Origin: Myxococcota bacterium
Lineage (GTDB): Bacteria > Myxococcota_A > UBA796 > GCA-2862545
Direction of reading: 5' to 3'
Assembly: GCA_039208735.1 (NCBI GenBank)
Contig: JBCCQY010000020.1
Span: 1-64,000, forward strand
Length of the DNA: 64,000 nt
Part shown: one piece after another, positions 14,085-34,914 of the stretch
Position numbering within the stretch: the first letter of the stretch is position 1
Layout: each line of letters starts with the position of its first letter
Translations under genes and position numbers: made by a program
The notes under the pieces: generated by a model
What the model was told of the DNA's origin: nothing
The model's input: the letters and a program-made list of their open reading frames with translations, nothing else
The model's database searches: none

Positions 14085-14195
14085 CGTCGCGGTTCGGTGC
14101 CTCTACCATCGCAAAGCTTATCGATATATAGGTTTGGGTGTTTACCTCTTCGAGCTGCATGCGCTGGCTGGAGGAGCGTCCACAAGGAGGTTGCG

Positions 14196-17000
14196 ATGGA
14201 TTCGTTGCGTACGACTCGTCGGCAAGGGGGTCAACCGATGACTCTGACTGCGCTCACGGCACTGTTGGGCTGCCTGCTGGGGCCAGTGGGGGCGCAGGCC
14301 CAGACCTACCGCACGGACGTGGAGTTGGGGAATCCGGTTGAGGTCACGGCCGGCGACGTGACCCTGCGGGTCGACGCGGGCTCCTGGGTGGGGTGGGCCA
14401 CCTACGACATTCACTACTTTCGGGCCACCTGCACGGAGGGAAACCAGGACTGCTCGGATAAGGTGGATTGGTCGACGACCTACGGGCACTTCGAGCACGT
14501 GAGGACCGCCGCAAACGATGGCCTTGAACTCACCGAGCTTCGGGTCTACTCGCCAGTCTACCGTCCACAGAACCGGTTCAATCGGTCCGTCGTCATGTGG
14601 TCCTCGGATTTGGACGCACGCAGAGATCGTCAGGCGGTAAAGAACAACCCCACCACGGGAGTGCTGACGCTGTCGTATCGGGGTGTATCGATCGAGGTAC
14701 CGCTTACGGCGTACTCGATCCTCGATGAAGACAATCCGCTTCCGGTCGCTTGGAATCAACCGGCGAACTTGAAGACGCTCTTCGGCGTGGGCTTCGGGGA
14801 CCCGGGTTCCGATAGCTACCTGGGATTGACCGAATTCATCCAGGGCGACTACCTGAATGACTTGACCTACCAGCAGGGCCAACTGCAGGCCATGAAGTCC
14901 GTGTCAGACCGATTGAAGGCCGAGATTATTGCTTGGCATCAGGGAAATCAAGAGCCCTACATCCTTCCCGAAAGCGTCTTTGACTACACCAAGCCGGCCA
15001 CCGCCCGCCCCTCGTTCACCTCACGCTCGTTGTCGGGGCCGCGCCAACGGTGGAAACTCGTCCGTTGGACGGACGTGGATGCCGAATCGATGGCTCGGGC
15101 GCTTGAGACGCGTCCCGCCGACCCCTATGAGAACGTGCGCCAAGTGGGGGGACGCGGTCTCTTCCCCGACGCGAATGCGACCTACATTCGCTACAATTAT
15201 GTCGCGCCGTTCGACTCGACCCTGATTATCAAGGGCCAGTTCCCACACGCGCGATTCATGAGTTTCGAGAATAGCCAGCCCCCCATTCCCTCGCAGCCCA
15301 CGGGAACTGCGGGCTCCGGTGGACCGGAGGTGCCGATTACCGACGCGGACATTTTGCCCGACCCTGGAAGCATCAACCCGTTTGTGGCGGGTGCAGACCG
15401 GACGGCCACCCAGCGCGACTACACCGTCGCGTTCCACCATCCGCTGACGATGATCACGGATGCCAGCGGTAATCTCGTGGATGATCCACGAAAGGGCATC
15501 GATCTGAACGAGCAAAACTGCCCGGGTTCGTTTCAGGAGAGCCGTCCGGCGTATCGGTGCCACGAGCCTGCCCTTTTCATGCCGGGGATTCCGCGGTCGA
15601 ACGTGCGCATTGCAGGGAACATGCGTACGGGAGGTGGCATGACGGATGGGGAGCTTCTTCCTGCTTAGTTGTGGCTCCGCTATTATGCGCCCGATGCACC
15701 TACTGGCGTCGTTAACTACGATCCCTACGGTGGCGTGGAGATTCCCATCGCCTACTTTGAGGCCACCTGGAACGGACAGACGTACCGTTGGGGGCTTGAG
15801 CTGGTTCGGGGGCCCGGTTCGGCCATCAATGCAGAGGATGACGGCGAACAACGGGACCGAATCGTGCGTTTTCTCTCGTCCCCGGTGTCACCCAACGATC
15901 CTCCTCTGACTGTGACGCCGGCTTCTGTTGGCGCGGGCAGTGCCGTTGGTTTCACGAAAGGCTTTCACATTCCGCGGGCGTTCGCGGTGGCGGCGGCGAA
16001 GGTTGCCGAAGCTCAGGGGGGCTTGCTCGCCTTGCTTCTGACCGACGAGAGCCTGCGAACCATCGACGCGAAGGCTTTCGGCAAGGGGTACGCGAAGCTC
16101 AACGGAAAGAAGAAGTTGGGGGGAAATGCGACCGGAGGGGTGTTGCCCGTGGCAGGGCCCGGAACGTACGAGTCGCACTCGACGGCCTCGAATTCGATCC
16201 ACTACACGGGCCGTACAATGGCGGTGGAGCAAGGCTACGTGGTCGTCGTGACGGGTCGAGCCCCGACCACGCCGACGACCCTAGGCGGTGATGCGACCAT
16301 GGGGGCGGGCACTGACATGCGCTACTGGTCGTTCACGCACTACTGCACAGGCCCTGTGCTGGACGATGCCACCACCATCTTGCGGACGTCACCCTTCAGC
16401 GGGTTGAACTGTGGCTCGTTGCAAGACGAGCAAGTCACGACCGTGAGCCGAGGCGATGAGGAATGGTACGCCATCGTCTTGTCCCAGCCCGAGGATCGGC
16501 CGAGCCTGGCCACCAGGGGACGAGGATTCACCTGGCAAGATTGGGGCCCGACGCCCGTGCAGCCTACCGGCTTCCGATGGATGGCGATTGGCGAGCGCCC
16601 GGGCGTAGACCAGCCTGGTGAGGCGTGGGCGAATTACGGCACGCTCGGTGACACAGTGGCCAACAGTAGCGTGATTGTGCCAGACATTGAGAACCTTCCC
16701 TTCGTCACCTCATTTGGCGAGGGCAGCTGTGGCAATGATTGGCGGGAATTGTGCGCGAAAAGCGCCGATCCTTTGGCACCGCGTGGGTATCAGGACCTCG
16801 ACACCAGCTGGAGCGCCCGCACGCGGACCGATGAAAATGATGCGTTCACCTTTATCGGCAAGAATGAGCGCACGGAGTCCGTAATGAAGGACTACCATCC
16901 CGAGTATCACTATCTGACGAAAGAGCAGTTTGATGCTTTATCGTCTGCGGAGCGTCGTCCATGGGACTTTGGTGGTGGACAGTATAAGACGGGGTGGTAA
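14196..17000 (+). pseudogene. large secreted hypothetical protein interrupted by a single in-frame TAG (15666-15668)
   Basis: ORFs ending at 15668 and starting at 15669 abut in the same frame (GELLPA*LWLRYYAPD); RBS and signal peptide only on the first part. Confidence 0.7.
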
Positions 17001-17033
17001 CCAGCTTGCCGTCGCTGAGCGACGGCAAGCTGG
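17001..17033. repeat. perfect 16-bp inverted repeat immediately after the stop codon
   Basis: CCAGCTTGCCGTCGCT-G-AGCGACGGCAAGCTGG. Confidence 0.9.
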
Positions 17034-17339
17034 CCCGCGTAGGCCTGCAGGCGCAGAGCGCCGAAGGCCAGCGGGTGTCCGTCCTTTGCACACCTTTGGT
17101 GCGGAGCGACGGCAAGCTGGCCCGCGTAGGCCTGCAGGCGCAGAGCGCCGAAGGCCAGCGGGTGTCCGTCCTTTGCACACCTTTGGTGCGGAGCGACGGC
17201 AAGCTGGCCCGCGTAGGTCTGCCGGCGCAGAGCGCCGAAGGCCAGCGGGTGTCCGTCCTTTGCACACCTTTGGTGCAGAGCGACGGCAAGCTGGCCCACG
17301 AGGTCTGCCGGCGCAGAGCGCCGGAGGCCAGCGGGTGTC
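17017..17339. repeat. tandem array of an 87-bp structured unit (about 3.7 copies)
   Basis: GAGCGACGGCAAGCTGG recurs at 17017, 17104, 17191 and 17278; the intervening sequence is nearly identical. Confidence 0.95.
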
Positions 17340-17384
17340 TAAACAAATCTGATCAAAACTAAAAATAAGGCATTTGGAGGACCC

Positions 17385-18269
17385 ATGGTTCGATGGTCGG
17401 TCCTAGGGACCCTGGTTGCGTGTGCTCCCCCTGACGCGGAAGACGTGCCCGCCGAAATCGGCGAGGCTACCGAGTTTCTGTTTGCGCACTTGGATGATGA
17501 GGATCCGACGGCCATCCAGCGGGTCATTGCGGAAACCGTCCTGCCGTTTGTCCTCCAGAAGCTCGACGCCATTGACGATCCGTCCGATCCGATGGATCCC
17601 GGCTACTACACCGATCTGCAGCCCTTGCCTGAAGGGAGCTTGGGTGACCTGTCGATGCCCGAGGGCACGACCTCGGCGGATCAGCGCGTTCCCGTGGCTC
17701 GGGTTCGGAGAACCACGAACCGCGCGGCGGACTTTCGGGAGTTGGCGGCGGTTACGGACCGCACGTGCATTGAGTCCGAGACGACGCATTGGGCGGAGCG
17801 GTCGTTTCTGACGGACGCGGATTGCTATGCTCGAGGGGATTGCGATTGGCTGTCCGCCGTCCAGCCCACCTTGAAGGTCAACCCGTTGGCGTCCATTTGG
17901 TACGACCAACATCTCGAACAACGCGAGCTGCAAGTCGAGGTGGATGGTGCATCATTCGATGCGACGTTGGCCCGTAGTTTTCTGACCGAGCGTTGGTTTT
18001 CGCGCAATGGAAACAACCAATGGGATCAGCTTTGGACGTTGGACGTAACGGTCGACCGGCCTGACGGGGCCGTGACCTGGAACGCCTACTGGAGTGCGCT
18101 GCAAGTCACCTTGCTTAGCGATGCCATTTTGGCATCGAGCATTCGTGCAGGGATGGTCGAGGCGGGGGCGTGGGCGGATCATTTTGTCGAGCAAGGGGTC
18201 GCCCATCCTGACTGCCCTCATGAGCGAGGACAGCCGATGCCGGAACGGTGGTCCAATGAACCGGGGTAA
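17385..18269 (+). CDS. hypothetical lipoprotein
   Basis: GGAGG RBS, lipobox LVAC, 294 aa. Confidence 0.8.
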   Translation: MVRWSVLGTLVACAPPDAEDVPAEIGEATEFLFAHLDDEDPTAIQRVIAETVLPFVLQKLDAIDDPSDPMDPGYYTDLQPLPEGSLGDLSMPEGTTSADQRVPVARVRRTTNRAADFRELAAVTDRTCIESETTHWAERSFLTDADCYARGDCDWLSAVQPTLKVNPLASIWYDQHLEQRELQVEVDGASFDATLARSFLTERWFSRNGNNQWDQLWTLDVTVDRPDGAVTWNAYWSALQVTLLSDAILASSIRAGMVEAGAWADHFVEQGVAHPDCPHERGQPMPERWSNEPG

Positions 18270-18334: not shown

Positions 18335-19303
18335 TTAAGGCCTTGACCGGAGCCACGTGATGGTGTCCCGCAACGTGGTGTCCCCATCGGGCGGGCTCCA
18401 CCCTAGGCGATCGGCGAAGCGCGTCCGAAGACCCCACCAGTGGCGTCCCATTTCAACGAGCACGGGATCGGGAATCCCGATGGGCAGCGCCAATCGGCGC
18501 TGGACCCGGGCGGCGGTGTGCACGACACGCCAGGGCAAGACCCATTGGGGGGCTCGAACCCCGCCGATGCGAGCGATGCGATCGGCGAACTCCCGAAGCG
18601 AACAGGCCGTCCCCGGGAGGTGAACGACCGGGGGTGGAGCGGGGTCTGAGGCCAGGGTGACGAGGGCCTCCGCTGCCGCCCGGACGTCGACCCAGTGCAC
18701 GCCACCTTCCACCAGGGCCGGAAGTCGTCCGTCCAAGATTCGGGTCACGTGGCGAGCGGAGCGGCCCGTCGGATCGTCGGGCCCCAGCAGAATCGGGGGT
18801 CGAACGATGATCAAGGGCACGCCAAGCTCGTCGGCCCGAGCGCGCGCCTGCCGTTCGGCCCTCACCTTCGACGCATAGTAGGGCCAATGCTGGACGCGGT
18901 GCCAGACGTAGGGGCTTTGTTCATCCGCCCAACCGTCGGGGTCGTCGAACACCCCGACCGTGCCCGAGGTGCTCACGAACACGACCCGCGCTCCGAGACG
19001 CGCCGCAAGTTCGACGATGGCTACCGTGCCGTCGACGTTCACGCGGTGGGTTTCCTGGGCCTGGCCTCGGGAATGGTCGACCTTGGCGGCAAGATGCAGG
19101 ATGGTGTCCACGCCATCGAGCTTGGGATGCCCGGCCCAGGCTTGTGGACGCTCGATCGCGCCCGGAATCTGAAACACGCCGTCTACAGGTTCCGGACGAC
19201 GGCACAATCCCACGAGCTGGGTGTCCGGAACGCGTCGTTGCAACGCCCGGACCGTGTGTCGACCAAGCAATCCGGTGACGCCGGTGATCAACACTCGGTT
19301 CAT
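18335..19303 (-). CDS. extended SDR (NAD-dependent epimerase/dehydratase, DFR-like)
   Basis: ITGVTGLLG, HLAA, VSTS, YYASK, RPPILLGP; ATG 19303 overlaps the upstream TGA. Confidence 0.9.
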   Translation of the reverse strand: MNRVLITGVTGLLGRHTVRALQRRVPDTQLVGLCRRPEPVDGVFQIPGAIERPQAWAGHPKLDGVDTILHLAAKVDHSRGQAQETHRVNVDGTVAIVELAARLGARVVFVSTSGTVGVFDDPDGWADEQSPYVWHRVQHWPYYASKVRAERQARARADELGVPLIIVRPPILLGPDDPTGRSARHVTRILDGRLPALVEGGVHWVDVRAAAEALVTLASDPAPPPVVHLPGTACSLREFADRIARIGGVRAPQWVLPWRVVHTAARVQRRLALPIGIPDPVLVEMGRHWWGLRTRFADRLGWSPPDGDTTLRDTITWLRSRP

Positions 19304-21843
19304 TTGGCGGCATCTTCCGGAGAGAACATCGATACGCTCGCTCGATCCGCCTTGGGATGAAGGACCCCGTCGCGTTGCTCGAGATTGCCACGGGCGATCA
19401 TCCAATCGATGGCGGCGTTGACTTCGTCGGGCCAAGCATTGCTGGCGAGCCGCACCACGTTTTGGCGTTCGATGGGTCCCTGCATGACGATGGCTTCGGT
19501 CTGGCTCCAGTCGTCGACCACGGAGCGTGCGAGGGCTCGTGCGGCTTCGCGCATGGTGGGATCGACATCGATGGGAGCGTTGGTGGACGCACTGAACGAC
19601 GTGCGACGTAGATGATCCGCAATGGCCGGATGAGAGTCCGCCATCGCAGCAAGTTCACGCGCCGCGTGGTGCTGCCAATGGGGCCGCATCCAGCGCTCCT
19701 CGGCGTCGCTGACGGTCGCGGTGGTGGAGGATTCCAGCACATGCGCGCCGCGGGCTTCGAGACTTCGGCGAAGCGCCGCCGCAGAGACCCCTGACCGCTT
19801 CTCGAACGCGTCGAGGTGGTAGGTCGTGGTGACCATAGCTTGTTGCTGGCGTTCTTGGGTTTGGGCCACGACCTCGGCCACGTCCGACTCGACGTCGAGT
19901 CGCAGTGGCTCCCCGGCGGCAAGGTGCATGCGGCCTAGATCGACGTCGCCGCGGTAGGCCTTTTTGAGCCAGCCGCCCAACCCCTGCAGCGTCATGGCTT
20001 CCTTGTCTCCACCACGCAATTCCTGTAGCAGCGGTCCCGCGTCGGGAATGCGGTCGTACGAAAGGGCAAGCGGCAGCACCATGAACGGCTCCCGCGTGGC
20101 CTGGAGGCTTCGCAAGACCCCACGACGAGCCTTTAGGAAAGCCCCACTGCGGCTGCGTTGTCCTTCGATGAAGACCTGAATGACCGGGTTGCGGGCCACC
20201 TGCTCGGCAATCATCCGGGTGAGGTTGGCGTCGGCCGCACCCTGACCGCGGTGGAGATAGAACGCCCCCATGTTGGCAAACGCCGTTCCCAAAATGGGAA
20301 TGCGGGAGAATGCAGCCGCCGCTGCGATGGCGGGCAGCGGCAGATGGACTTCGGGCAGCGCGTGCAAGGCGTAGCTGATGAGGAGAAAGTCGACGTAGCT
20401 TCTATGATTGGGGCAAATCAGGATGTTGCTTTCGGGCGGAATGGCTTCGATCGCGGCTTCAAGGCTGTCCACATCGACGGTGGCTTGTTCCACGCATTGA
20501 CGTGCCGTCGTCCGCAGGAGCAGCCCGAATCCCCGTTGCAGTGTCGATGCAGCCCCAGGACGCAGGGCCCATCGGGCGTCGGACCCCGAGCTGCGGCGTC
20601 CGGCAATCGGAACGGCACGGCTGTTTCCCCGCAGGAGGTGTTCGTGAACCCCTGCCGCCACTTGATCGAGGTAGACCTGTCGGTCGAAGTCGGGAGGCAG
20701 CACACCGCCCTCGAAGTGCCACGACTCCGACATGAAGGTCCGGAAGGTCTCGTCGAGGCCCCGAACGCGTTGCCGAGCCCGCATCGCTCGCCTTGCCCGG
20801 CCCGATTGACCTGACAACCGGGCAAGCCCCTCCTCGTAGTAGAGCGGCGCTTGCTGGAAGATGTGTCGAACGACGCCGCGTGACAGGCCCGCAGGGAGTG
20901 CGACGAGCTTCGGGGTGGAGCGAACGGGCCGGTTGCGAAGACGACGAATCGTCCACTGCTGGTGTTCTTCGATGCTTGGGCTGTTGGCCGGGCCCGCGAC
21001 CACCTGAACGATGCGATCGGGCGTATCGAGCGCGGCCACGACCTGTTCCGCCACGATGTCGACCGGGATCAGATCGAGCCTCGTGGCTGGGGAACCCTCG
21101 AGCACCCGGTACAGGCCCGCACCGATCGCCGCGACCATTCCAGCGTGGGCGGCCGCGCTGTCGACCCAACCAGGGATGGGCCAGCGCCACGCCACACTCA
21201 CGATGCTGGGACGGACGAGCACCAGCGCGGCATGTTGCTGCCGCTCGTCCAACCGATGTTCCGCCAGGCACTTCGTGAGGGTGTAGGAGTTTGGATGCCC
21301 GGTCTTTGCCGATGCGGCTTTCGCGTCGACGCGCGCTTCCTCACAGAGCGCCTTGGCGGAAGCGGGAAGCGCCACCAACTCTGGTCCATGCCGTTCCGTC
21401 AGCGGCGGGTGGACGTAGGCGGTCGACACACTGACGAGCCGTTCCGCGCGTGCCGCCTCTGCGAGATCTTGAACCCGCAAGGCACCGTCGACGTTGATGG
21501 CCATCGCTTGGTCGCCCGGGAGGTCGAAGCGCACCGAGGCCGCGAGGTGAACCACATGCGTGACGTCTCGCTCAAGGGCTCGTCGAAGGTCAGGCGGAAT
21601 GGCGAGGTCCGAGGCGCGCAAGTCTCCAGGGACGGCGTGCACACGTTCGCGACGCTCTCGGGGGAGATCTCGAAGGGGCAACGTGCGAAGCAGCCGCTCG
21701 ATGCGCGACTGGGCCCGCGCTGGCTGGTCGGCGGGCCGGACGAGGGCGTACACCCGACTTACCGAGTCATCTTCAAGCAGCCTACGGAGCACCAGCTTGC
21801 CGATGAAGCCGGTGGCTCCGGTCAAAAACACGACGCGTTTCAT
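19300..21843 (-). CDS. fatty acyl-CoA reductase - DHAP/G3P acyltransferase fusion (FARAT-like)
   Basis: FAR: TGATGFIGK, HLAASVRFD, PNSYTLTKCLAE, VRPSIV...PGWVD, DLIPVD; acyltransferase: PNHRSYVDFLL, GAFYLHR, FIEGQRSRSG, PLALSYDRI. Confidence 0.92.
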   Translation of the reverse strand: MKRVVFLTGATGFIGKLVLRRLLEDDSVSRVYALVRPADQPARAQSRIERLLRTLPLRDLPRERRERVHAVPGDLRASDLAIPPDLRRALERDVTHVVHLAASVRFDLPGDQAMAINVDGALRVQDLAEAARAERLVSVSTAYVHPPLTERHGPELVALPASAKALCEEARVDAKAASAKTGHPNSYTLTKCLAEHRLDERQQHAALVLVRPSIVSVAWRWPIPGWVDSAAAHAGMVAAIGAGLYRVLEGSPATRLDLIPVDIVAEQVVAALDTPDRIVQVVAGPANSPSIEEHQQWTIRRLRNRPVRSTPKLVALPAGLSRGVVRHIFQQAPLYYEEGLARLSGQSGRARRAMRARQRVRGLDETFRTFMSESWHFEGGVLPPDFDRQVYLDQVAAGVHEHLLRGNSRAVPIAGRRSSGSDARWALRPGAASTLQRGFGLLLRTTARQCVEQATVDVDSLEAAIEAIPPESNILICPNHRSYVDFLLISYALHALPEVHLPLPAIAAAAAFSRIPILGTAFANMGAFYLHRGQGAADANLTRMIAEQVARNPVIQVFIEGQRSRSGAFLKARRGVLRSLQATREPFMVLPLALSYDRIPDAGPLLQELRGGDKEAMTLQGLGGWLKKAYRGDVDLGRMHLAAGEPLRLDVESDVAEVVAQTQERQQQAMVTTTYHLDAFEKRSGVSAAALRRSLEARGAHVLESSTTATVSDAEERWMRPHWQHHAARELAAMADSHPAIADHLRRTSFSASTNAPIDVDPTMREAARALARSVVDDWSQTEAIVMQGPIERQNVVRLASNAWPDEVNAAIDWMIARGNLEQRDGVLHPKADRASVSMFSPEDAAK

Positions 21844-23702
21844 GAGCGCTCACTCAACCCTTGGTTTCCAACACCGAAGATGTCGTGTGGGTCGACAGCC
21901 TGCTTCAATTTGCGGCGCAGGGTCGTGCGCCCGTCGTCCTCTGCGCGATGGAGCCACGGGGTCCGCGTCTGACCGATTCCATGATGGTGGGAAACCGCGG
22001 CTCCATGGGTCAGCATGGCTTCTCGCGCGGCCCCTTCGAGGGCATGCCAGGCGGCGGACGGATCCTCGACCTGCTTGTAGACGAAGCCCACGTAGAAGTA
22101 CGTGCACACGCCTTCTGGGTAGATTTGGGAGATTCGCGAGGTCACGAAAGGGCGCCCCGGGAGCCCCAGTTCGGCATGCCGATCGCGAATGGCCTGCTTG
22201 ACGGCGGCGATCATGGGCATCGCGTTGCGCCAGCTCACCGAGGTTTCGAACGACTCGCCCCACACCCAGTGCTCGAGCATGTAGTCGCGGATGTAGGCGA
22301 TGGCGAAGGTCAGTCGATAGCCATCGGCCCCTCGGCTGCTACCTCCGTCGATGCCGCCAAACTGTTCGGCGATCGCTCGGACCGTCTTTTGCTGACGTTC
22401 AACCAGTTCTTGCGAACCCTCGTAGACCACCGTTGCGGCGGACACCTCGGAAAGGTCGAAGCCGTGCCACCGCTGCAGGACTTGTTGTTGGAGCCACTTG
22501 AGGGGAAGGTCGCGTCGCCGAGGGGCCGGTTTTAGGGCCTGGGCGAAGGCCAGCTGGTCGTTGTCGACAAGGCGAACGCTCGCCGGAACATCGCCGTGTT
22601 GCGTCAAGGCGTACAGAAAGCCAACCCCGGCCGCGAAGTCAGGGAACGCGATGGATCCGTAGCGCTGGACCTCCGGCAATCGGTGCAACCGGACCTTCGC
22701 CTCGGTGATCACGCCCAACGTGCCTTCAGAGCCGAACCAGAGGGTCTCGGGGTCGATCCCATGCGACGTTCGGGGTACCCCGGTGAAGGCGCCGACCTCG
22801 CCCGCTGCAGTCACGCCATCGGCTTGGAGCACGACCTGCTCGATGTTGCCGTAACGATTGCGCTTCATGCCACTCGCCCGCGTCGCGACCCAACCGCCCA
22901 GCGTCGAGAACTCGATGCTGTCGGGCTCGTGGCCTAGCGTAAAGCCGTGTTCGGCGAGCTGTTCGGCGATGACGCGTCCCACCGCTCCCGCTTGGATGCA
23001 GGCCACCGCGTCGACCGGATCGATCCATCGAACCCGGCTCATCCGTGCAAGATCGATCGAGATGATGATCCGAGACTCGACGTCGTGGCACTGCAACGCA
23101 CCGGTCACGCTCGTTCCCCCGCCGAAGGGGATGCACGTGGCTTCGTGGTGGGCGGCCGTGCGAACGATCGCGGCGACCTCCTCCGTCGACTCGGGCATCA
23201 CCACGATGTCGGGGGCTCGGGCCAGTCGACCGTAGTTGACGGTGTAGATCTCGGATGCCGTGTGGCCGTGACCATGTCGGACGCGGGTTGGGCCATCCGT
23301 GAACATCCGGTCGCCTACGATCTGCTCAAGAGCTCGTTCTAGCGCCGGATCCGACCGACGCTCTGGAGCGTGAGGCTCGGCAAGGGGGACGTGGCGGTCT
23401 TCGGCGGACAGCTCGAAGCCAAGCACGTCGCGAGCAAACTTGGTCAGGGCGGGCAGCGCCACCCCACACAGCGGATACCGATTGCCTTGCAGACGCGGGG
23501 CGCCAGAACGATCCCAGACGAACCGCGTGTCGTCGAAACCCCAACGCCGGGCCGCGGGGGCATCCGCACGAGGAATCGCGGTGGGCGGCGGGTAGATCCG
23601 GTGGGCGCCAAGGGTCTCGGCCACGGTGGAGGTGAATGTGCGTCCGAGCCACTGCCGAAAGCGGCTTCGAAAAGAGGGTTTCGTTGGTGTGGGACGGACC
23701 AC
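21840..23702 (-). CDS. agps: alkyldihydroxyacetonephosphate synthase (AGPS), FAD-dependent
   Basis: PFGGGTSV, GHEPDSIEFSTLGGWVATRASGMKRNRYGNIE, GSEGTLGVITEA, LTFAIAYIRD, ESFETS, SHHHGIG; GGAGG RBS before GTG 23702. Confidence 0.93.
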   Translation of the reverse strand: MVRPTPTKPSFRSRFRQWLGRTFTSTVAETLGAHRIYPPPTAIPRADAPAARRWGFDDTRFVWDRSGAPRLQGNRYPLCGVALPALTKFARDVLGFELSAEDRHVPLAEPHAPERRSDPALERALEQIVGDRMFTDGPTRVRHGHGHTASEIYTVNYGRLARAPDIVVMPESTEEVAAIVRTAAHHEATCIPFGGGTSVTGALQCHDVESRIIISIDLARMSRVRWIDPVDAVACIQAGAVGRVIAEQLAEHGFTLGHEPDSIEFSTLGGWVATRASGMKRNRYGNIEQVVLQADGVTAAGEVGAFTGVPRTSHGIDPETLWFGSEGTLGVITEAKVRLHRLPEVQRYGSIAFPDFAAGVGFLYALTQHGDVPASVRLVDNDQLAFAQALKPAPRRRDLPLKWLQQQVLQRWHGFDLSEVSAATVVYEGSQELVERQQKTVRAIAEQFGGIDGGSSRGADGYRLTFAIAYIRDYMLEHWVWGESFETSVSWRNAMPMIAAVKQAIRDRHAELGLPGRPFVTSRISQIYPEGVCTYFYVGFVYKQVEDPSAAWHALEGAAREAMLTHGAAVSHHHGIGQTRTPWLHRAEDDGRTTLRRKLKQAVDPHDIFGVGNQGLSERS

Positions 23703-23915
23703 GGGGCCTCCGAGAGCCAGGTCGATCGACCAAATCACGAGGGACCGTCATTACACGGCCAACGATGGGTTGTGCGAGCAACGAACGGGCGCACCACCGA
23801 AGATGCACCGATAAGGTGGACTTGTGGGAAAAAAAGAGAATCCGCCGCGGTCGTTCTAAATCGACATCAAAGTGCACCGCATGTCGGGCCAAGGACACTG
23901 GCCGATCGTCGAGCG

Positions 23916-24752
23916 TCAGCCCTCTGTTCCCTCGAACAAGGGGGTGAGTTCTCGAAGCGCACCGGCGAGATGCTGCAGGAGTGTGCGGACGCGCGCCGAA
24001 CGCCGCAGGTCGGCGTGGGTCAGCACCCACAGTGACGAGTTGGTCGCCGCGAGAGTCCCCGGGACGCGCTCGATCCCAGGTGTCCGATCCCCGACGAAGC
24101 AGGGGAGGATGCAGCGGCCGACCCCCGATGCGACGGCTCGGGCCTGCAGGGCGGCCGAGTCGAAGCGGGCCACGACGGGCACATCGTCTGGGGTGACGTC
24201 GAGACGCCTCATGAAACCAGACCACCCGATCCAGTGCGAAGGGCGGGTGCCGATCGCGACATACTGAGCGCCCCAGATCTCGCAGATTCTTCGCCCCACC
24301 GCGCTTCCTGGAGGACCGGGGCTGCCGCGAACCGAGAGATCGGCCTCATTGCGGTCGAGGTTCCGCACTTCGTTTGCTGCGAAGACCTCGAGTTCGATCC
24401 GCGGATGTTCGTTTATGAACGCTTGGAGAGGTTCGATCAGGCAATCGGCGAGGACATCGGCCGTGGCGATCCGCACGGTACCTTCGAGTTCAAGGTCCTC
24501 TCCGGACGCTCGACGGGAGAGCAAGGCGACTTCGGCCTCCACACGCTCGGCGTGGAGTCGCACCGCCTCGGCGGCCTCAGACTGGACGAGGCCCCGAGCG
24601 CTCCGGACGAACAGCGGGGTGCCGAGTTCGTCCTCGAGGGCGCGGATGCGACGGCTTACCGTCGACTGGTTGACACCAAGGTCGGCGGCGGCCGAGGTCA
24701 ACGAACCAGCTCTCACCGCAGCCAGAAAGTAGCGAATGTCGTCCCAGTCCAC
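23916..24752 (-). CDS. LysR-family transcriptional regulator
   Basis: MDWDDIRYFLA...GSLTSAA..LGVNQSTVSRRIRALE HTH plus substrate-binding domain. Confidence 0.95.
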   Translation of the reverse strand: MDWDDIRYFLAAVRAGSLTSAAADLGVNQSTVSRRIRALEDELGTPLFVRSARGLVQSEAAEAVRLHAERVEAEVALLSRRASGEDLELEGTVRIATADVLADCLIEPLQAFINEHPRIELEVFAANEVRNLDRNEADLSVRGSPGPPGSAVGRRICEIWGAQYVAIGTRPSHWIGWSGFMRRLDVTPDDVPVVARFDSAALQARAVASGVGRCILPCFVGDRTPGIERVPGTLAATNSSLWVLTHADLRRSARVRTLLQHLAGALRELTPLFEGTEG

Positions 24753-28453: not shown

Positions 28454-31102
28454 CTACCGCTCGCTACCCCTCGCGTTCGAGAGTCGCTGGTGCGCCCGCT
28501 GCAGCGTGTGCCCCAATAGGCCCGTGCGAGGGACGTGACCTCTTCGGAGTTGGTCATCCGTTTCGTCTAGCCGCTGTTGTGCGGCCTCCCAGTTCCCAAG
28601 TCGCCATTGAAGTTCCGCCTCGGCGCACCCAAGCTGAATGACCGCTGAAAAGTCATGGTTCTGTGGTTGAAGAGCGGCCAGGTTCTGAATCTCGACGGTG
28701 GCGCGGTCCACCCAACCCAACGCCAACGCGGCGTGGGCGCGTTCCCACTGAAGCGCCAGTGCTTCATACGTGGAGCAACGTTCGATCAGCCCCTGGTCTT
28801 CCATGAGGAGGAACCATGCCTTTTCCGGCTCAGACATCGCGCGATAGACGCCTGCGAGAACGCTTGTGGCGTTGGCTCGGGCATCCTCAGGCCCATTGGT
28901 GGCATTCGCAAAGTCGTCTTGCGCGATGGACAGGGCTTCGGTGAGCCGACCCAGGGCCTGGAGCACGAAGACCTTGGCGCAGCGGCTCTTTGTCCATGCC
29001 GGCTCCTCGACCTGCTGGCCAAGCCTTGCCGCTTGTTGGGACTCCTGGAGCGAGTTGTCGAACGACCCGACACAGGCCAACGCGTGTGCGATGTGTCGCC
29101 GTATCGAGACTTCCCCGCTTCGATCACCCCGGGTCTCGTTGACGGCTAGCGCACGCTGGTGGGCATGCAGGGCGGGAGCGAACCAGCCCTGTCGTTGGAG
29201 CACCACGCCAAGACTGTCCAGGGCGAGTTCCTCGAGAAAGCTGGAACGGGCCACCTGAGCCGCGCGTACCATGCGTTCGAATTTGCGTTTTGCGTTGGGG
29301 AGGTCGCCTCGATCGATGGCATTCATGCCCAAGCGTTGAGTGGCCACGGCATGCCCGTACGCGTCGTGATGTTCGAGTTGGATCAGGGCTTCTTCTGTGG
29401 CTTGTTCCGCCAATTCCGGTTCGTTTCGGTAGGCGTAAATGAGGCTTAGGCGCATGAGCGCATACCCAAGTCCCACGGAATCACCGGCCGCTCTGCACAA
29501 TTCGGTTGCTTCGTGGGCGTAGGCGAACGCCACGTCGAGTTCTTGTTCCAACAGATAGAGCCAGGCGCGGAACCCAAGTGCGATGGCCCGTTCTCGAGGT
29601 TTTGCGAGGGGCAACACCCGATCGAGGAGTTCGGACAACAGGGAATGGGGCCCATTCAACCGAAGGGCCACATAGACCCCACAGGCGGTGGCGACCGCGA
29701 CGTGCCGATCTTCTCGTTGGACGGCTCTTCGGCAAGCCACCACCATGTCGTCGACGACCGCCAACAGGTCGTGGAACGGGAGGCTTCGCTCATCCCGATG
29801 GGCGCGGCGCAGGCGTGGTTCGGTCGCCAGCGACGCCAGGAGTTCTCCGTGGCGACGGTGCCCCGGGAGGCGCAGGGATTCCGGGACTGCCTCGGCCACA
29901 AATCGACGAATTAGCGGTGCAACGCGTAGCCGTGCGCCGTCTCGGCGCACCAACGCCACGCGTTGGAGGGCTTGAATGTCATCGATGACCTCCTCGAGCG
30001 ACCCCTCGACCGTGCGCGCAGCCTGTTCCAGGGTAAACGGTCTGACCCATGCGGTGAGATCGACGAGGACTCGCTGGGCGGAGGGGGAAAGGCGTCCCCA
30101 GGTCGCTTCGAGGACGGCTTGAAGGCTGCGATGTCGCTCGTGGACGTCTCGAGCATGCCGATTTCCCAGGAACGACAGGCGCCGCTGGACCAAGGCCAAC
30201 ACCTCATCCGCGGGCAATGATTGAAGACGATACGCGGCGAGTTCTAGCGCCAAGGGAATTCCGTCGAGTTCTTGCGCAAACTGCGAGCGAATCTTGTGGT
30301 CGATCGACAAGCCTGAGCGATCCTCAAGCAGCTGTTCGGCCACCGACGTTCCCAGCCCGTCGATCCAATGAAGTTGCTCGATGGACAAGCCAATGGGCTC
30401 GCGGCTGGTCACGACAAAGAACGTCGTTGGGGCGGCGGTTGCCCACACAGGAAGCAGTTCCGTCAAGGCTTCGAGCGCATCTTCGGCATTGTCAAGGACG
30501 AGGACCGAGATGTGGGCCGCAGCAATCGCATGGCCCAAGGCCGCTGGCGAATCCGACCCTCTGCGAGCGCTGACCGCCCGCATGACGCGAACGAGGACGT
30601 CATCGACCGAAGAGGCTTCCGCGAGATTGACGAAACGTCCGGACTGCTGACCCAAGAACTCCTGGGCGATGCGCGTTTTTCCAACGCCCGCGAGCCCGAC
30701 CAACGTGACGATGCGGGTGCCCCTCGCCATGCGTGAGCTGAGCGCGCGAAGCTCTGCCTCGCGACCCAAGAAACTTGACTCCGGGGCGCGATGGCGCGGT
30801 ATCTCGCGCACGGCCGGATCGCGGAGCCGATAGCCGCGTTTGGGTACGGTCTGAATGACGTTGCCCAACCGCTTGCGAAGCCGGCTCACGACCTTTGTGA
30901 GCGTCTCATCGCTGATCTCGGGCTCTTCGGGCCACAGGGCATCAAGCAAATCGTCCCGACTAAACAGCTGTCGAGGATGACGGACGAGCAGCAGGAGCAA
31001 ACGCCACGGCAACGGTGGCAACGTCTTGGTTTGTTCTCCGACCACGACGAGGCCGGCTGACACGTCGACCATTGCGCCGTTGCCGAGTCGATACCGTTCC
31101 AT
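28454..31102 (-). CDS. wHTH (OmpR-type) - STAND NTPase - TPR regulator
   Basis: SRDDLLDALW...TVPKRGYRL; GLAGVGKT; VLDNAE; TSRE; LDGIPLALELAA; TPR-like C-terminus. Confidence 0.92.
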   Translation of the reverse strand: MERYRLGNGAMVDVSAGLVVVGEQTKTLPPLPWRLLLLLVRHPRQLFSRDDLLDALWPEEPEISDETLTKVVSRLRKRLGNVIQTVPKRGYRLRDPAVREIPRHRAPESSFLGREAELRALSSRMARGTRIVTLVGLAGVGKTRIAQEFLGQQSGRFVNLAEASSVDDVLVRVMRAVSARRGSDSPAALGHAIAAAHISVLVLDNAEDALEALTELLPVWATAAPTTFFVVTSREPIGLSIEQLHWIDGLGTSVAEQLLEDRSGLSIDHKIRSQFAQELDGIPLALELAAYRLQSLPADEVLALVQRRLSFLGNRHARDVHERHRSLQAVLEATWGRLSPSAQRVLVDLTAWVRPFTLEQAARTVEGSLEEVIDDIQALQRVALVRRDGARLRVAPLIRRFVAEAVPESLRLPGHRRHGELLASLATEPRLRRAHRDERSLPFHDLLAVVDDMVVACRRAVQREDRHVAVATACGVYVALRLNGPHSLLSELLDRVLPLAKPRERAIALGFRAWLYLLEQELDVAFAYAHEATELCRAAGDSVGLGYALMRLSLIYAYRNEPELAEQATEEALIQLEHHDAYGHAVATQRLGMNAIDRGDLPNAKRKFERMVRAAQVARSSFLEELALDSLGVVLQRQGWFAPALHAHQRALAVNETRGDRSGEVSIRRHIAHALACVGSFDNSLQESQQAARLGQQVEEPAWTKSRCAKVFVLQALGRLTEALSIAQDDFANATNGPEDARANATSVLAGVYRAMSEPEKAWFLLMEDQGLIERCSTYEALALQWERAHAALALGWVDRATVEIQNLAALQPQNHDFSAVIQLGCAEAELQWRLGNWEAAQQRLDETDDQLRRGHVPRTGLLGHTLQRAHQRLSNARGSER

Positions 31103-31179
31103 CACGGCCGAGACATACCATGGACGCGCGATGGAGACGGTCAAGGTTCCCGCAAGAACGTCATCTTGCGGCAGAGGGA

Positions 31180-32553
31180 TCAGTGGGCGATGGTCGGGTC
31201 GATTCCTCGTTCCCGAAGGATGTCAAGGACGATCGACAGTGGCGTCGGACCGTCGACATTGGGCGTCCGGTCGTTGACGATGTTGTCGTTTTCTCCGTGG
31301 AGGTCCACCTCGGGCAGAGGGATGCCTCCCTCCGAACCGAAACACCAGATCATCGCCTGATCCGCTTCACCAGGAACGACCAGGCACCCTCCGGGAAGGG
31401 CTGCGCCCGCTCCAAGCACACGTGCATAGCAGTCCGGACCTTGTCCGATGCAGCTTCGAACCGCTTCAGCGTCCGTAGCCGGCCCACAAAGAGGACCCAG
31501 GACACCGCTTCCACCACCGTCACCCAGACCCGTACGATCCTTCGGGGAGATCATAGGGCCTCGATCGGGGACCGAGATCGCATTCCGAATTCGTTCGGCG
31601 CGGCTGCCGTCTCGGTTTCCGTCGGGCAGCTTGATTTTGATTTCGATGTAGACCTCGTCGGGAGACAAGCTGCCATCGATGGCGTCGGCGGTTTCCTGTA
31701 CGTTTTCGGGAATGATGTCTGGGTAGTTCCGCGGCGTTTCCCGCTCCGGGAAGCCTTCGGGGGGGTCGGGTTCCGGGGGGATGGTGGCCCGGTTCGGGTC
31801 ATCGTCGTCCGGCCCGGGGAGGGGCCTCGATTCGCCTTCGGCGGGACCTCCATTGTTTTCCGGCGTGAGCGACTCTTCGACCTCCCGCTCGGCGCGTTCT
31901 TCGTCGGTCTCCAGCGGTTCGGCATCCGGTTGGGGCATCAGCCGACGGCGGCGCTCTTCCATTTCTTCGATCAACGCATCGACGAGGCTGCTCGTTCCCG
32001 AATCGCTCTCGCCATCGGCCACGGGATTGATCTCTCCGCAGTCTGGCAGGAGTAGCGAAGCGAAATCGTCGAGCAGGGACTCCGAGGGAGCGCCGCCCGA
32101 GCCGCCGGAGAAACCGCCGCCGCCTCCTCCGCCGCCGCTTGTGAACCCGCCGCACGGACCGAGATTGGCGAGCATGTCGTCGATGGCGTCCACATCTCGC
32201 AGCCCTTCGCTTCCCAGGCAGTCGCCGGCCAAGGCGGCCATGCCATCGGTGCTCACCATGATCGATTCGCGGAGGAATCCATTGATCTCGGCCACGGACC
32301 AGTTGAGCGACGTCTCGTCGGGTCCGATCGCTGCAACAACGATCGAGTGATCCGCTTCGCTTACAATGGCCGCGAGCGTCCAATCCCCGACTTGGGTGTC
32401 GGCAATGTAGATGTCGTCGGTGAGGGGCTCGAGAACCGTTCCACTGAAGTGGGTCTCGAGCAGATGATCTGCGGTCAACTCATCGGCATGAGCGATGCTC
32501 GCGGTGGTGAGTGCCAACAGCGAGGCGGCACCCAACTGAACAACGTTCTTCAA
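31180..32553 (-). CDS. secreted acidic Pro/Gly-rich hypothetical protein
   Basis: AAGGAG RBS then TTG; signal peptide ending AHA; poly-Gly linker. Confidence 0.7.
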   Translation of the reverse strand: MKNVVQLGAASLLALTTASIAHADELTADHLLETHFSGTVLEPLTDDIYIADTQVGDWTLAAIVSEADHSIVVAAIGPDETSLNWSVAEINGFLRESIMVSTDGMAALAGDCLGSEGLRDVDAIDDMLANLGPCGGFTSGGGGGGGGFSGGSGGAPSESLLDDFASLLLPDCGEINPVADGESDSGTSSLVDALIEEMEERRRRLMPQPDAEPLETDEERAEREVEESLTPENNGGPAEGESRPLPGPDDDDPNRATIPPEPDPPEGFPERETPRNYPDIIPENVQETADAIDGSLSPDEVYIEIKIKLPDGNRDGSRAERIRNAISVPDRGPMISPKDRTGLGDGGGSGVLGPLCGPATDAEAVRSCIGQGPDCYARVLGAGAALPGGCLVVPGEADQAMIWCFGSEGGIPLPEVDLHGENDNIVNDRTPNVDGPTPLSIVLDILRERGIDPTIAH

Positions 32554-32771
32554 GTCGGTCTCCTTCAAGCGTGATTGGGACCATCAGCGGGGGGGAGCTG
32601 CGGCCTGGTCGATGTTCGGTTGGGTTCGCGAACGGCACCTGACGAAAACCTGACTGCTCCGATTTCTCCTCTTCGAGTTGGATCTTTTGCCCTCCGGGGG
32701 CACGGCCCGCCGCCGGGAGTGGACGCATCTTGCTGTGAACCCACGTTCGGTAGGCTCGGGGGGGAGAGTTC

Positions 32772-34914
32772 ATGGACGAGTTTCACTATGTGCGCATCCC
32801 GGGCGTCGACGGCGGCGTCGATTGCTGTGCCGGACCTGCCGTTGGCATCGAACTCGAGACGGTGCTCGCCGCGGGCGTACCCCCTTGGAAGGTCGGTCTC
32901 GAGCTGGTGGCGGCCCTGTGTGAGATCCTCGACATTGCGGACGCGGATGAGGTGACTCACGGCCTCGTCGAGCCGCAATTCATCTTCCTGGATGAGAAAG
33001 GAGCGCTCTGCCTCGAGGGCTTTGGCGTTCCTCGCGCATCCAACGCACCGAACGCCAAACCGGGGCAGCGTGCCTCCGATCGGTATGGCCTGGGCTACAC
33101 GGCCCTACGAATCTTGTCGGCCCGCCCGGTTGCGTTCCCCCTTTCCTCAGACATCGGCCAAAGACCACGATGATGCCGCCATCGACGCGGTACTCGAGAT
33201 GGATCTTGCCGGGCTGGATCAGGCGATGCAGGAGGACGTACAGTGGTTTTTGGCCAAGTTGATGTCGTTTGAGCCGTCCGAACGTCCGAGCGCTCTGGAT
33301 GCATGGAGGACGTTCATCGCCTTTGCCGCCACAACGGCTGGCCCGGAGTTGGCCAGTTGGGCATCCGACGTCGTGGCGGGAGGCGGGGAGCGAAGGGCGG
33401 TTGGACGTCAACCGACCATCGCCCCCGAACCCCTCGGCAACCCCACTCGGCTCCCGGGCCCCATGCCTACTCCGATGGCCTTCTCAGAGACCAATGAGGT
33501 CCTCTTTCAGCCTTACAACACGCTCTCTTCGTCGAAACCTCCGCGCGGCGTCGGTGGAGGAACGGCGACGGCGTACTGGAAACCCGAACAACTCGCCGCC
33601 ATGTCGCAGGGCCGTGAGGATGCTCCCAAGCCAAGTCGCAAGGAGCCAGAGCCTTCCGCGCCCCTCGAATTCGAGGAAGTGCAAACGCCGTTGGCGGTCC
33701 CGACTGCCACGCTCTCTGCAGATGAGAAAGGTGGTCTATTCCTGGAATATGTTGTGGCGGGAGCTTCGGTGGATCAGCTGGACTTCTCCAGGGCCAACCT
33801 TCGCGGGGCTCGGCTTGACGGAGCCGATCTCTCGGGCGCCACGCTCGACCGGGCTGACTTGCGGGAGGCCTCGTTGCGCGGAGCGAGCCTGACGGGAACG
33901 GTCCTTGCCCGGAGCAACCTCGTGCGGGCAGATCTACGACGAGCCAGCTTGGAGAAGGCGGATCTGCACAACGCGCACTTGCTCGAAGCCAACCTCGAGG
34001 AGGCCAGTCTGTACCAGGCGAACCTCAGCCGCGCCGACGTGGTCGGGGCCAATCTTTCCGCCACAAATCTCCGGGGTGTGGATCTATCCACGACGCAGGT
34101 CAGGTTCGCCCAAATCACCCCGGAGACCTATCGCAAGAGCAAGTGGACGTTCGAAGAACTGGCCGAGCTGCACGAGCGGGGAGCCTCGATTGGAGGCCTT
34201 GCCGACGAATTGGCACGCGCCGCGAAGCCCGGGCTCACCCTTTATTTCCGGACGGGCCTATCCGATCTTGATCACGCCGCCGTGCTCGTCTTGCTGCATG
34301 AATTCAAGGTCCTCCATCCAGATAGCGACCTCCGTCTGGCCGAGTTCGAAAACACGGGAACTCGGGCCCGATTGAACATCCGAGGATCGAACGAGGACCA
34401 CCTCGCCCTCGTTGCGGAGTGGCTGCAACAGCGACCTTGGGAACCCCCATCCCAGACCCGCCCGTCTTCGAGCAACGAACTCGTTCCCCTCGACACGCGG
34501 CCCTTTGCAGGTCCCAATGCCGAACAGATTTCGTTTGTGTGGGACCGGACGGGCCGCATGGAGCTTTGGCGTCGTGTGTCGAACCGCCTTGTCAGGCTGA
34601 AGACCTACAACAACGACCCGCCATCTGCCTTGTTGCTTCACTACCGACTTCTTGTCACCGCGTTTACGCCTTCTGAACTGGAGCGGCTCGTTCCACTCCA
34701 TCGTGCGGATGTGGCGCTGGAGGTCAACTTCAGCGGTTCGAGCAAGGCTGTGGCGAGCCAGGTCGCATCCGTCATGGAGCGGTGCGTCGTGTCACTGGAT
34801 TGGTTTCGTGTGCTCATGACGGAACGGCCCTTGCTTGCTGGCCAGATCGCGTTCGTGGCCGCGACGTACGGCTTTCAGGACATGGGTTTGATCGAGACCG
34901 CCCAAGCGAGATGA
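32772..34914 (+). pseudogene. frameshifted pseudokinase - pentapeptide repeat - EAD-like protein
   Basis: First frame: HGLVEPQFIFLDEKGALCLEGFG...SDRYGLG; +1 frame: LMSFEPSERPSA (kinase subdomain XI-like), A(D/N)LxxA repeats and a helical C-terminus; frames join near 33137-33144. Confidence 0.7.

Follow-up and report, generated by a model that had tools for sequence, protein, structure and literature searches.

What does a three-gene cluster that resembles the peroxisomal ether-lipid pathway do in an uncultured Myxococcota bacterium? The cluster is found on the minus strand at positions 18335..23702 of contig JBCCQY010000020.1 (assembly GCA_039208735.1, here termed G000); the window is the whole stretch analysed, positions 1 to 64,000 of this contig. 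The three genes are predicted to encode an alkyl-dihydroxyacetone phosphate (alkyl-DHAP) synthase, AGPS, a fusion of a fatty acyl-CoA reductase (FAR) with an acyltransferase, and a short-chain dehydrogenase/reductase (SDR). The operon probably uses the DHAP route to make precursors of 1-O-alkyl glycerolipids, as an orthologue of the MXAN_1676-1675-1674 genes of Myxococcus xanthus; the probability of this reading is put at about 0.85. An initial annotation, made from the DNA alone, had proposed an alkyl-ether pathway, and the gene identities, GNPAT-type motifs and conserved gene order support this as the likely function. A check of the open reading frames (ORFs) and the sequence bore out its three minus-strand genes and both ATGA overlaps. 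The features of the operon are as follows.

21840..23702, minus strand: gene 1, AGPS, 620 aa from a GTG start (ORF, domains, alignment)
19300..21843, minus strand: gene 2, FAR-acyltransferase fusion, 847 aa, MXAN_1675 type (ORF, domains)
18335..19303, minus strand: gene 3, extended SDR, 322 aa, ElbE family (ORF, domains, alignment)
20629..21843, minus strand: FAR domain of gene 2, about residues 1-405, with TGATGFIG at 8-15 and YTLTK at 187-191 (domains, alignment)
19774..20595, minus strand: acyltransferase domain of gene 2, residues 417-690, with HRSYVDF and FIEGQR (alignment, tree)
21840..21843, minus strand: ATGA overlap of the gene 1 stop and gene 2 start, GCTC-ATGA-AA (sequence)
19300..19303, minus strand: ATGA overlap of the gene 2 stop and gene 3 start, CAA-ATGA-AC (sequence)
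23707..23711, minus strand: GGAGG, probable ribosome-binding site, 4 nt 5′ of the GTG at 23702 (sequence)

An in-frame GTG at 23738 is an alternative start for gene 1, but the GGAGG is favourably placed 4 nt before 23702. A promoter and terminator scan at the operon gave no signal exceeding that of shuffled sequence.

Gene 1 displays FAD_binding_4 and FAD-oxidase_C domains. Its best solved relative is guinea-pig AGPS (4bby; E-value 4e-135, 455 bits, residues 47-612), with an end-to-end alignment. The score with Dictyostelium AGPS is 296 bits, whereas other FAD oxidases reach at most 88 bits, and in the tree gene 1 groups with AGPS, apart from the distant paralogues. The AGPS identity first given to gene 1 is thus upheld. 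R377, Y535 and H572-H573-H574 align to guinea-pig R419, Y578 and H615-617, which we take to be active-site residues. 4bca and 4bby are not alike at the Tyr position, and a literature search on these residues found no matching paper. Gene 1 is likely an alkyl-DHAP synthase (EC 2.5.1.26) that exchanges acyl for alkyl on acyl-DHAP. A second AGPS-like gene of G000, on contig C33 at 32897-34630 (L142:7898-9631), shows 30% identity and has no recognised lipid genes nearby.

Gene 2 contains PF07993 (E-value 1.5e-54) and PF01553 (E-value 4e-19) with the motif H480-x4-D485, in agreement with the fusion of a FAR to an HxxxxD acyltransferase that had been read from the sequence. The predicted structure (pLDDT 91) has rice FAR (7eoz) and human GPAT1 (8e4y) as nearest folds; the model thus suggests a FAR domain joined to a GPAT-like domain. 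Neither the Pfam GPAT_C domain (PF19277) nor the Sterile domain was found in gene 2, and PF19277 has no match in G000 at all. The score with the PlsB model TIGR03703 is 77 bits, against a cut-off of 618.

Four positions form a signature, derived in this analysis as a correlation, that separates animal GNPAT and protist FARAT from PlsB and GPAT1, and gene 2 shows the GNPAT state at each of them: D-F486, an ungapped block at 505-516, F512 and a non-Gly residue at 562. The D-F following HxxxxD is present in 10/10 animal GNPAT and protist FARAT rows and 20/22 operon and fungal rows, but in 2/17 PlsB rows. A one-residue gap in the block is found in all 17 PlsB rows and in none of the 43 others. Human GPAT1, a glycerol 3-phosphate enzyme, has D-Y and the gap, i.e. 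the PlsB state. The signature supports DHAP as the putative acceptor of the gene 2 acyltransferase.

The Melittangium fusion (P0065) has 38% identity with gene 2 over 99% of a 700-residue query and falls in the same 100/100 clade. Fungal copies from Clonostachys and Paramyrothecium, at 33-34%, are the closest named eukaryotic relatives; protist FARAT-type matches show 24-29% in local alignments. Other fusions were seen: P0090 (Kofleriaceae record) has FAR, acyltransferase and SDR in one ORF, the middle apparently frameshifted, and P0369 (Gammaproteobacteria record) has a PlsC-like acyltransferase fused to AGPS.

In the proposed pathway, the N-terminal domain of gene 2 would, as its family indicates, reduce acyl-CoA or acyl-ACP with NADPH toward fatty alcohol. 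The C-terminal domain, to judge by its motifs, would acylate DHAP. Gene 1, with the family and residues of AGPS, would then swap the acyl group for the fatty alcohol to give alkyl-DHAP. The remaining NAD(P)H step would fall to gene 3, either from alkyl-DHAP to alkyl lysophosphatidate or from fatty aldehyde to alcohol, and housekeeping PlsC-type enzymes would complete the lipid.

The three-gene set recurs in other bacteria. A scan for AGPS, with one genome per species, gave 120 confirmed relatives, and the best 80 of the 120 loci, all in other genomes, were analysed. All three genes are present in 20 of these 80, in the same order in 19, and at least one partner is present in 56. Where the downstream flank is 4.5 kb or longer (52 loci), 16 have all three genes, 23 the fusion and 25 the SDR. 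This synteny survey, which the initial annotation had named as a check, shows that the clustering is not due to chance, since both set and order recur. The record titles include Myxococcota, Gammaproteobacteria, Sericytochromatia, Gemmatimonadota, Binatota, Spirochaetota and other groups; among these records are several metagenome bins, possibly mislabelled. Mention of agps homologues in other bacteria is found in the available parts of PMC13159169 and bioRxiv 10.64898/2026.06.23.733905.

Some loci from the scan stand apart. In L014 and L033 operon genes are on contigs labelled Thermoplasmatota/Poseidoniales, which are either misbinned or show a bacterial-type alkyl-ether route in archaea. L091 (3713-10538, Poribacteria title) encodes an ElbD-type protein and, directly after it, AGPS and a classical SDR, an arrangement that links the ElbD and AGPS routes, which are treated as independent in M. 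xanthus. At L058 (13-9722) and L083 (7872-17581), records labelled Xenobia and Planctomycetota, AGPS adjoins a type I polyketide synthase that ends in a thioester reductase, which suggests polyketide-derived alcohols for ether lipids.

By gene order and similarity the operon is an orthologue of the M. xanthus MXAN_1676-1675-1674 type and so belongs to a type already known. The M. xanthus operon is drawn or discussed in the parts available of PMC9131029 and of PMC13012113 (Fig. 1B). There MXAN_1676 is given as about 42% identical to human AGPS, MXAN_1675 as FAR plus GNPAT-like, and MXAN_1674 as of the NAD-dependent epimerase/dehydratase family (PMC9131029). Disruption of MXAN_1676 results in a minor loss of ether lipid (PMC9131029). 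The FAR and AGPS tables of PMC13012113 hold adjacently numbered M. xanthus_A genes of 868 aa (FAR plus acyltransferase) and 631 aa (AGPS), the shown parts of which resemble gene 2 (N-terminal 400 residues) and gene 1 in a comparison by eye only. A categorically new system is thus ruled out, and the novelty implied at first for the operon does not hold.

Several points weigh against the alkyl-ether reading. The Arg/Tyr/His set of AGPS is also found in the distant paralogue on C33 and is thus necessary but not diagnostic alone. ElbD showed no detected fatty alcohol or acyltransferase activity in vitro (PMC9131029, parts available). No demonstration of activity of MXAN_1675, MXAN_1674 or the present operon was found in the literature as far as it was accessible; the three activities are not established there because ElbD masks the operon in M. 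xanthus. FAR-bearing AGPS loci with ample flank but no gene 3 number 13, and gene 3 is thus not obligatory. The G000 assembly is 92.7% complete with 6% contamination, so that its absences below mean "not found" only.

Gene 3 matches PF01370 (E-value 3e-27) and displays TGxxGxxG, S111/S113 and Y142xxxK146; the cofactor and YxxxK motifs are intact. Matches are to extended-SDR models only, with none to adh_short, the classical SDR model, and the extended-SDR call thus stands. Eukaryotic acyl/alkyl-DHAP reductases of the Ayr1/DHRS7B type are classical SDRs. The different SDR type of gene 3 lowers the likelihood that it belongs with these, not the possibility of the same reaction. Gene 3 has 34% identity over 326 columns with the ElbE of a relative, G037, and STSGTV, WPYYxSK and LLGPxD are common to both. 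It is the best match of this ElbE in G000, and therefore one SDR family appears common to both myxobacterial ether clusters. Inactivation of elbE results in fewer ether lipids (PMC9131029 section 6, as available).

Two steps may be considered for gene 3, and we lean somewhat toward reduction of alkyl-DHAP to alkyl lysophosphatidate. A gene-3-type SDR is beside AGPS with no FAR nearby in 9/80 loci, and a classical SDR occupies the slot in 5 others. The slot is therefore tied to AGPS, which favours reduction of the AGPS product. A respectable alternative, though less probable, is that gene 3 finishes the alcohol as a reductase of fatty aldehyde (or acyl-CoA), alkyl-DHAP being reduced by GpsA or a classical SDR. 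The nearest solved folds in a structure comparison are Gox2253 (TM 0.82), presumably a reducer of medium-chain aldehydes, and cinnamoyl-CoA reductases. The ElbE family moreover accompanies ElbD, which has a FAR domain but no AGPS; these folds and this pairing favour aldehyde reduction. The same is favoured by the two GpsA-like genes kept in G000, by the extended rather than classical SDR type, and by the link of ElbD to aldehyde rather than alcohol (PMC9131029, parts available). Against aldehyde reduction count the tie of the slot to AGPS and the 13 FAR-bearing loci with no gene 3. Of the final reductase first proposed, the SDR identity is thus retained, while alkyl-DHAP as its substrate is one of two readings.

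The surroundings of the pathway in G000 bear on its end product. A genome search of the kind first suggested, for elbD and CarF, found none of ElbD (FAR-acyl-CoA synthetase-ACP-acyltransferase), ElbC or CarF/PEDS1. The sole strong PF07993 match in G000 is gene 2. The CarF/PEDS1 family search was negative in 10/10 genomes (G000 and nine kin) and positive in 12/44 unrelated ones. The independence from ElbD claimed at first therefore holds for this genome. Because ElbD was not found, the operon is probably the only aerobic ether route of G000, and because CarF/PEDS1 was not found, the products would be alkyl (plasmanyl) lipids rather than plasmalogens. Relatives of the same order, e.g. G037, carry elbB-C-D-E. 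Since the genome is without found ElbD or CarF, its operon is a clean unit with which to show that three bacterial genes suffice for alkyl ether lipids, and the same copy offers a route to naming the reductase common to the elb cluster.

Loci L125-L129 (G013, G003, G002, G004, G016) contain a HAD phosphatase, a stand-alone FAR with a Sterile domain and a second PF07993 reductase, often beside tatD. The FAR of this trio, which most family relatives have, groups with the ElbD FAR; the trio is possibly a reduced elb cluster. It is not present in G000 or G001. The tatD gene of G000 has no trio beside it, but its neighbours are rearranged (a weak, protein-level comparison). The operon may therefore stand in for the alcohol-supplying function. 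This absence, and the neutral ether lipids that accumulate in M. xanthus development (PMC9131029, parts available), speak for neutral lipids used in storage or signalling (wax esters, alkyl-diacylglycerols such as TG-1) as the end product in place of membrane phospholipids. This is rather doubtful. AGPS with a DHAP-type acyltransferase points to formation of the ether bond, which neutral and polar lipids both need, and the end product alone is at issue. Elsewhere in G000, contig C13 at 67762-77981 (L141:9763-19982) has Pfa-type polyunsaturated fatty acid synthase genes, one of which ends in an acyltransferase domain.

Within its order the operon is rare. At E ≤ 1e-100, 2/152 genomes of the order yield a match to gene 1, G000 included, and no close AGPS was found in 40 relatives, the two matches at 33% being of the distant paralogue type. 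The full-length RpoB of G000 has 64-65% identity to genomes labelled Myxococcota, Deltaproteobacteria and Binatota, and 57% to one labelled Proteobacteria. Together with the elb clusters of same-order relatives and the Pfa-type synthase of G000, this makes a Myxococcota lineage likely for the host. Measured by tetranucleotide distance, the operon ranks at the 29th percentile of 1173 windows of the genome and is thus ordinary for G000. The gene upstream is as follows.

23916..24752, minus strand: LysR regulator gene, upstream of the operon (domains, orthologue comparison)

The LysR gene is probably not part of the operon unit: its orthologue in same-genus G002 is 89% identical, and that side there bears other genes and no operon. 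Contamination of the contig is ruled out by this LysR gene and by the composition of contig C20, which ranks 29th of 109 large contigs. Given the rarity in the order and the unrelated neighbours of LysR in the same genus, together with the genome-like composition, the operon is probably an old lateral gain, or else was widely lost in kin. On its other side, three plus-strand ORFs (523, 443 and 294 aa) at 14097-18269 of the window have no Pfam match and converge on the end of the operon; the last has a lipoprotein-like beginning.

Neither PlsB (PF19277) nor PlsY was found in G000, whereas 39/40 relatives have PlsB and 35/40 have PlsY. At the usual plsB site on unbroken contig C226 (2801-4311; L192), the two neighbours of plsB in relatives are separated by 850 bp that contain yaaA and no N. 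The yaaA-lipoprotein junction on the right is bridged by contig pieces in runs X2 and X3, from two other studies, and the left junction in X4, from another sample. The loss of plsB at this site looks real. On C130 the plsY slot is taken by other genes, and on C187 the neighbour of the second PlsB-type gene of G001 and G003 is there without it. The best G000 match of the PlsB of five relatives is the gene 2 acyltransferase domain. All of this would fit an operon that is the main entry into glycerolipids in G000, replacing PlsB and PlsY and giving an ether-rich membrane via acyl/alkyl-DHAP. That reading is nevertheless unlikely. A divergent 554-aa PlsB-like acyltransferase is kept on C35 at 30920-32581 (L144:3918-5582), directly upstream of a gpsA-like gene and conserved in 30/40 relatives; it is a candidate unannotated sn-1 acyltransferase. 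G000 also has two PlsX and ten further PF01553 proteins. G010 has neither PlsB nor PlsY, yet has no operon match, while G128 has operon genes together with PlsB. PlsB is kept in 26/51 AGPS-bearing genomes tested, which rules out a general anti-correlation of operon and PlsB. Loss of gpsA in G000 is likewise ruled out by its two GpsA-like copies. A literature search on plsB2 found no matching paper.

The operon had also been said to bear on the origin of the eukaryotic pathway. As a link this is not new: in its available parts PMC13012113, of 2026, already argues for a transfer of PEDS1, and likely of FAR/GNPAT, from Myxococcota to eukaryotes, the AGPS signal being too low. Trees were made with near-duplicates, long branches (L144, P0097, P0093 and the ElbD acyltransferases) and the misaligned P0369 left out. 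In the 36-row acyltransferase tree the operon, the fungal copy and FAR-acyltransferase-AGPS polyproteins of 1,400-2,700 residues form one clade (100/100) on a stem of 1.6 changes per site, and PlsB forms a separate side (100/100). With PlsB as root, this clade branches from within the animal/protist GNPAT-FARAT rows in 200/200 bootstrap trees; eukaryotic monophyly is not rejected in the approximately unbiased (AU) test (p 0.41). A placement outside PlsB plus eukaryotes rested on a very distant root and was dropped. The free FAR tree joined eukaryotic FAR with the ElbD type, though the AU test does not reject the alternative (p 0.53), and a quick-tree result that ElbD and not the operon FAR is related to eukaryotic FAR was set aside. 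In the AGPS tree, rooted on distant paralogues, the bacterial operon AGPS group together (support 99) among the free AGPS rows of eukaryotes, and monophyly of those eukaryotic rows is not rejected (p 0.46; four rows, two with a named organism). The trees do not show the operon as donor of the animal pathway. The clear eukaryotic kin of the operon acyltransferase are the fungal copies and diatom-type polyproteins.

Of 25 long AGPS relatives scanned, 16 combine FAR, acyltransferase and AGPS in a single chain; 10 of the 16 have an N-terminal acyl-CoA-binding domain and 10 a DegT-like pyridoxal phosphate (PLP) domain. Those of 1,900-2,700 aa with FAR, acyltransferase and AGPS, most of them with an acyl-CoA-binding domain, a DegT-like PLP domain or both at the front, are listed here.

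P0375, P0380-P0382, P0385, P0391, P0393, P0396, P0402, P0404, P0410, P0413, P0414: polyproteins

Diatom names were obtained for 2 of 10 looked up, Nitzschia inconspicua and Thalassiosira profunda. The fusion itself supports the view that the three activities form one pathway. Gene 2 outscores the amoebozoan FARAT against the polyprotein acyltransferase in 19/19 cases, whereas the amoebozoan protein outscores gene 2 against the polyprotein FAR in 13/16. The tests reject a grouping of the polyprotein acyltransferase with animal/protist GNPAT-FARAT (p 3e-7) and, weakly, one of the polyprotein AGPS with the free AGPS of eukaryotes (p 0.03). In the available parts of PMC13012113 three diatom AGPS (Fragilariopsis, Phaeodactylum, Pseudo-nitzschia) appear, solely as stand-alone, possibly truncated models of 554-564 aa, and PF00887 is not in its 15 data files. 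No description of a diatom polyprotein was found in the literature, where most candidates were judged by title and abstract. It is slightly more likely than not that eukaryotes have a second, unrecognised ether-lipid system, to which the operon family is the counterpart in bacteria. This would be a single-chain synthase of about 2,200-2,700 aa with acyl-CoA-binding, PLP-enzyme-like, FAR, acyltransferase and AGPS domains. It would be found in diatoms and probably other algae, organisms scored as without the pathway, and would have arisen apart from the GNPAT-FARAT line of animals and amoebozoans. Diatoms are thus predicted to make ether lipids with one giant enzyme.

The published data contain further indications. 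In the GNPAT table of PMC13012113, so far as available, 11/11 rows with a FAR Pfam domain are eukaryotic, and the Myxococcia rows, 14 of 40 matches examined, are of the FAR-less PlsB type. In its clustering table the sole row of the searched M. xanthus_A record is another protein than the 868-aa fusion; it belongs to a cluster whose lead member is a PlsB-type protein of 851 aa, and the sole row of Melittangium belongs to the same cluster. For these two at least, the operon fusion is not in the published tree input as seen in these tables. The origin of the eukaryotic pathway thus seems to have been tested without the operon's own fusion protein. If the second system is real, the published argument that myxobacteria donated FARAT depends on PlsB proteins without a FAR and has to be repeated with fusions of the operon type. 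The reverse course, an early eukaryotic AGPS plus FARAT pair taken up by bacteria and not ancestral to the eukaryotic pathway, is improbable: the PlsB-rooted and AGPS placements above and a patchy distribution across many bacterial phyla fit it, but neither test rejects eukaryotic monophyly, the stem is long, the distant root put the operon clade elsewhere, and the available parts of PMC13012113 argue the opposite direction for PEDS1 and FARAT.

Compared with known systems, the operon shares with the elbB-elbE cluster a FAR-like domain, an acyltransferase and an SDR of the gene 3 family (ElbE). Unlike the operon, that cluster has no AGPS, its ElbD has an acyl-CoA synthetase, an ACP and a PlsC-like acyltransferase, and it was not found in G000. 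With the peroxisomal pathway (FAR1, GNPAT, AGPS, acyl/alkyl-DHAP reductase) the operon would share the chemistry, and gene 1 aligns over its length with the guinea-pig enzyme; the operon reductase differs in being an extended SDR. Protist FARAT (Tetrahymena, Dictyostelium) is likewise a FAR-acyltransferase fusion with GNPAT-type motifs, but gene 2 does not have the Sterile and GPAT_C domains, has low identity and is on a separate long branch. The fungal copies have their acyltransferase inside the operon-type clade, but at about 690 aa they are missing the C-terminal region of gene 2. Fungal AGPS/FARAT copies (Trichoderma, Thozetella) occur together with PEDS1 according to the parts available of PMC13012113, which regard them as a separate transfer of recent date. 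The closest system is MXAN_1676-1674, which has the same genes, order and domain layout (AGPS, a FAR plus GNPAT-like fusion of about 850-900 aa, and an epimerase/dehydratase-family SDR). It differs in that, according to the sources as available, the M. xanthus operon plays a minor part next to ElbD and supplies CarF, whereas here ElbD, CarF, PlsB and PlsY were not found. The host here is of a different, uncultured lineage, with a close AGPS in 1/151 other genomes of the order. The type of operon is known; what is new is its apparent standing as the sole ether route of its host and the joining of its enzymes in one giant diatom protein.

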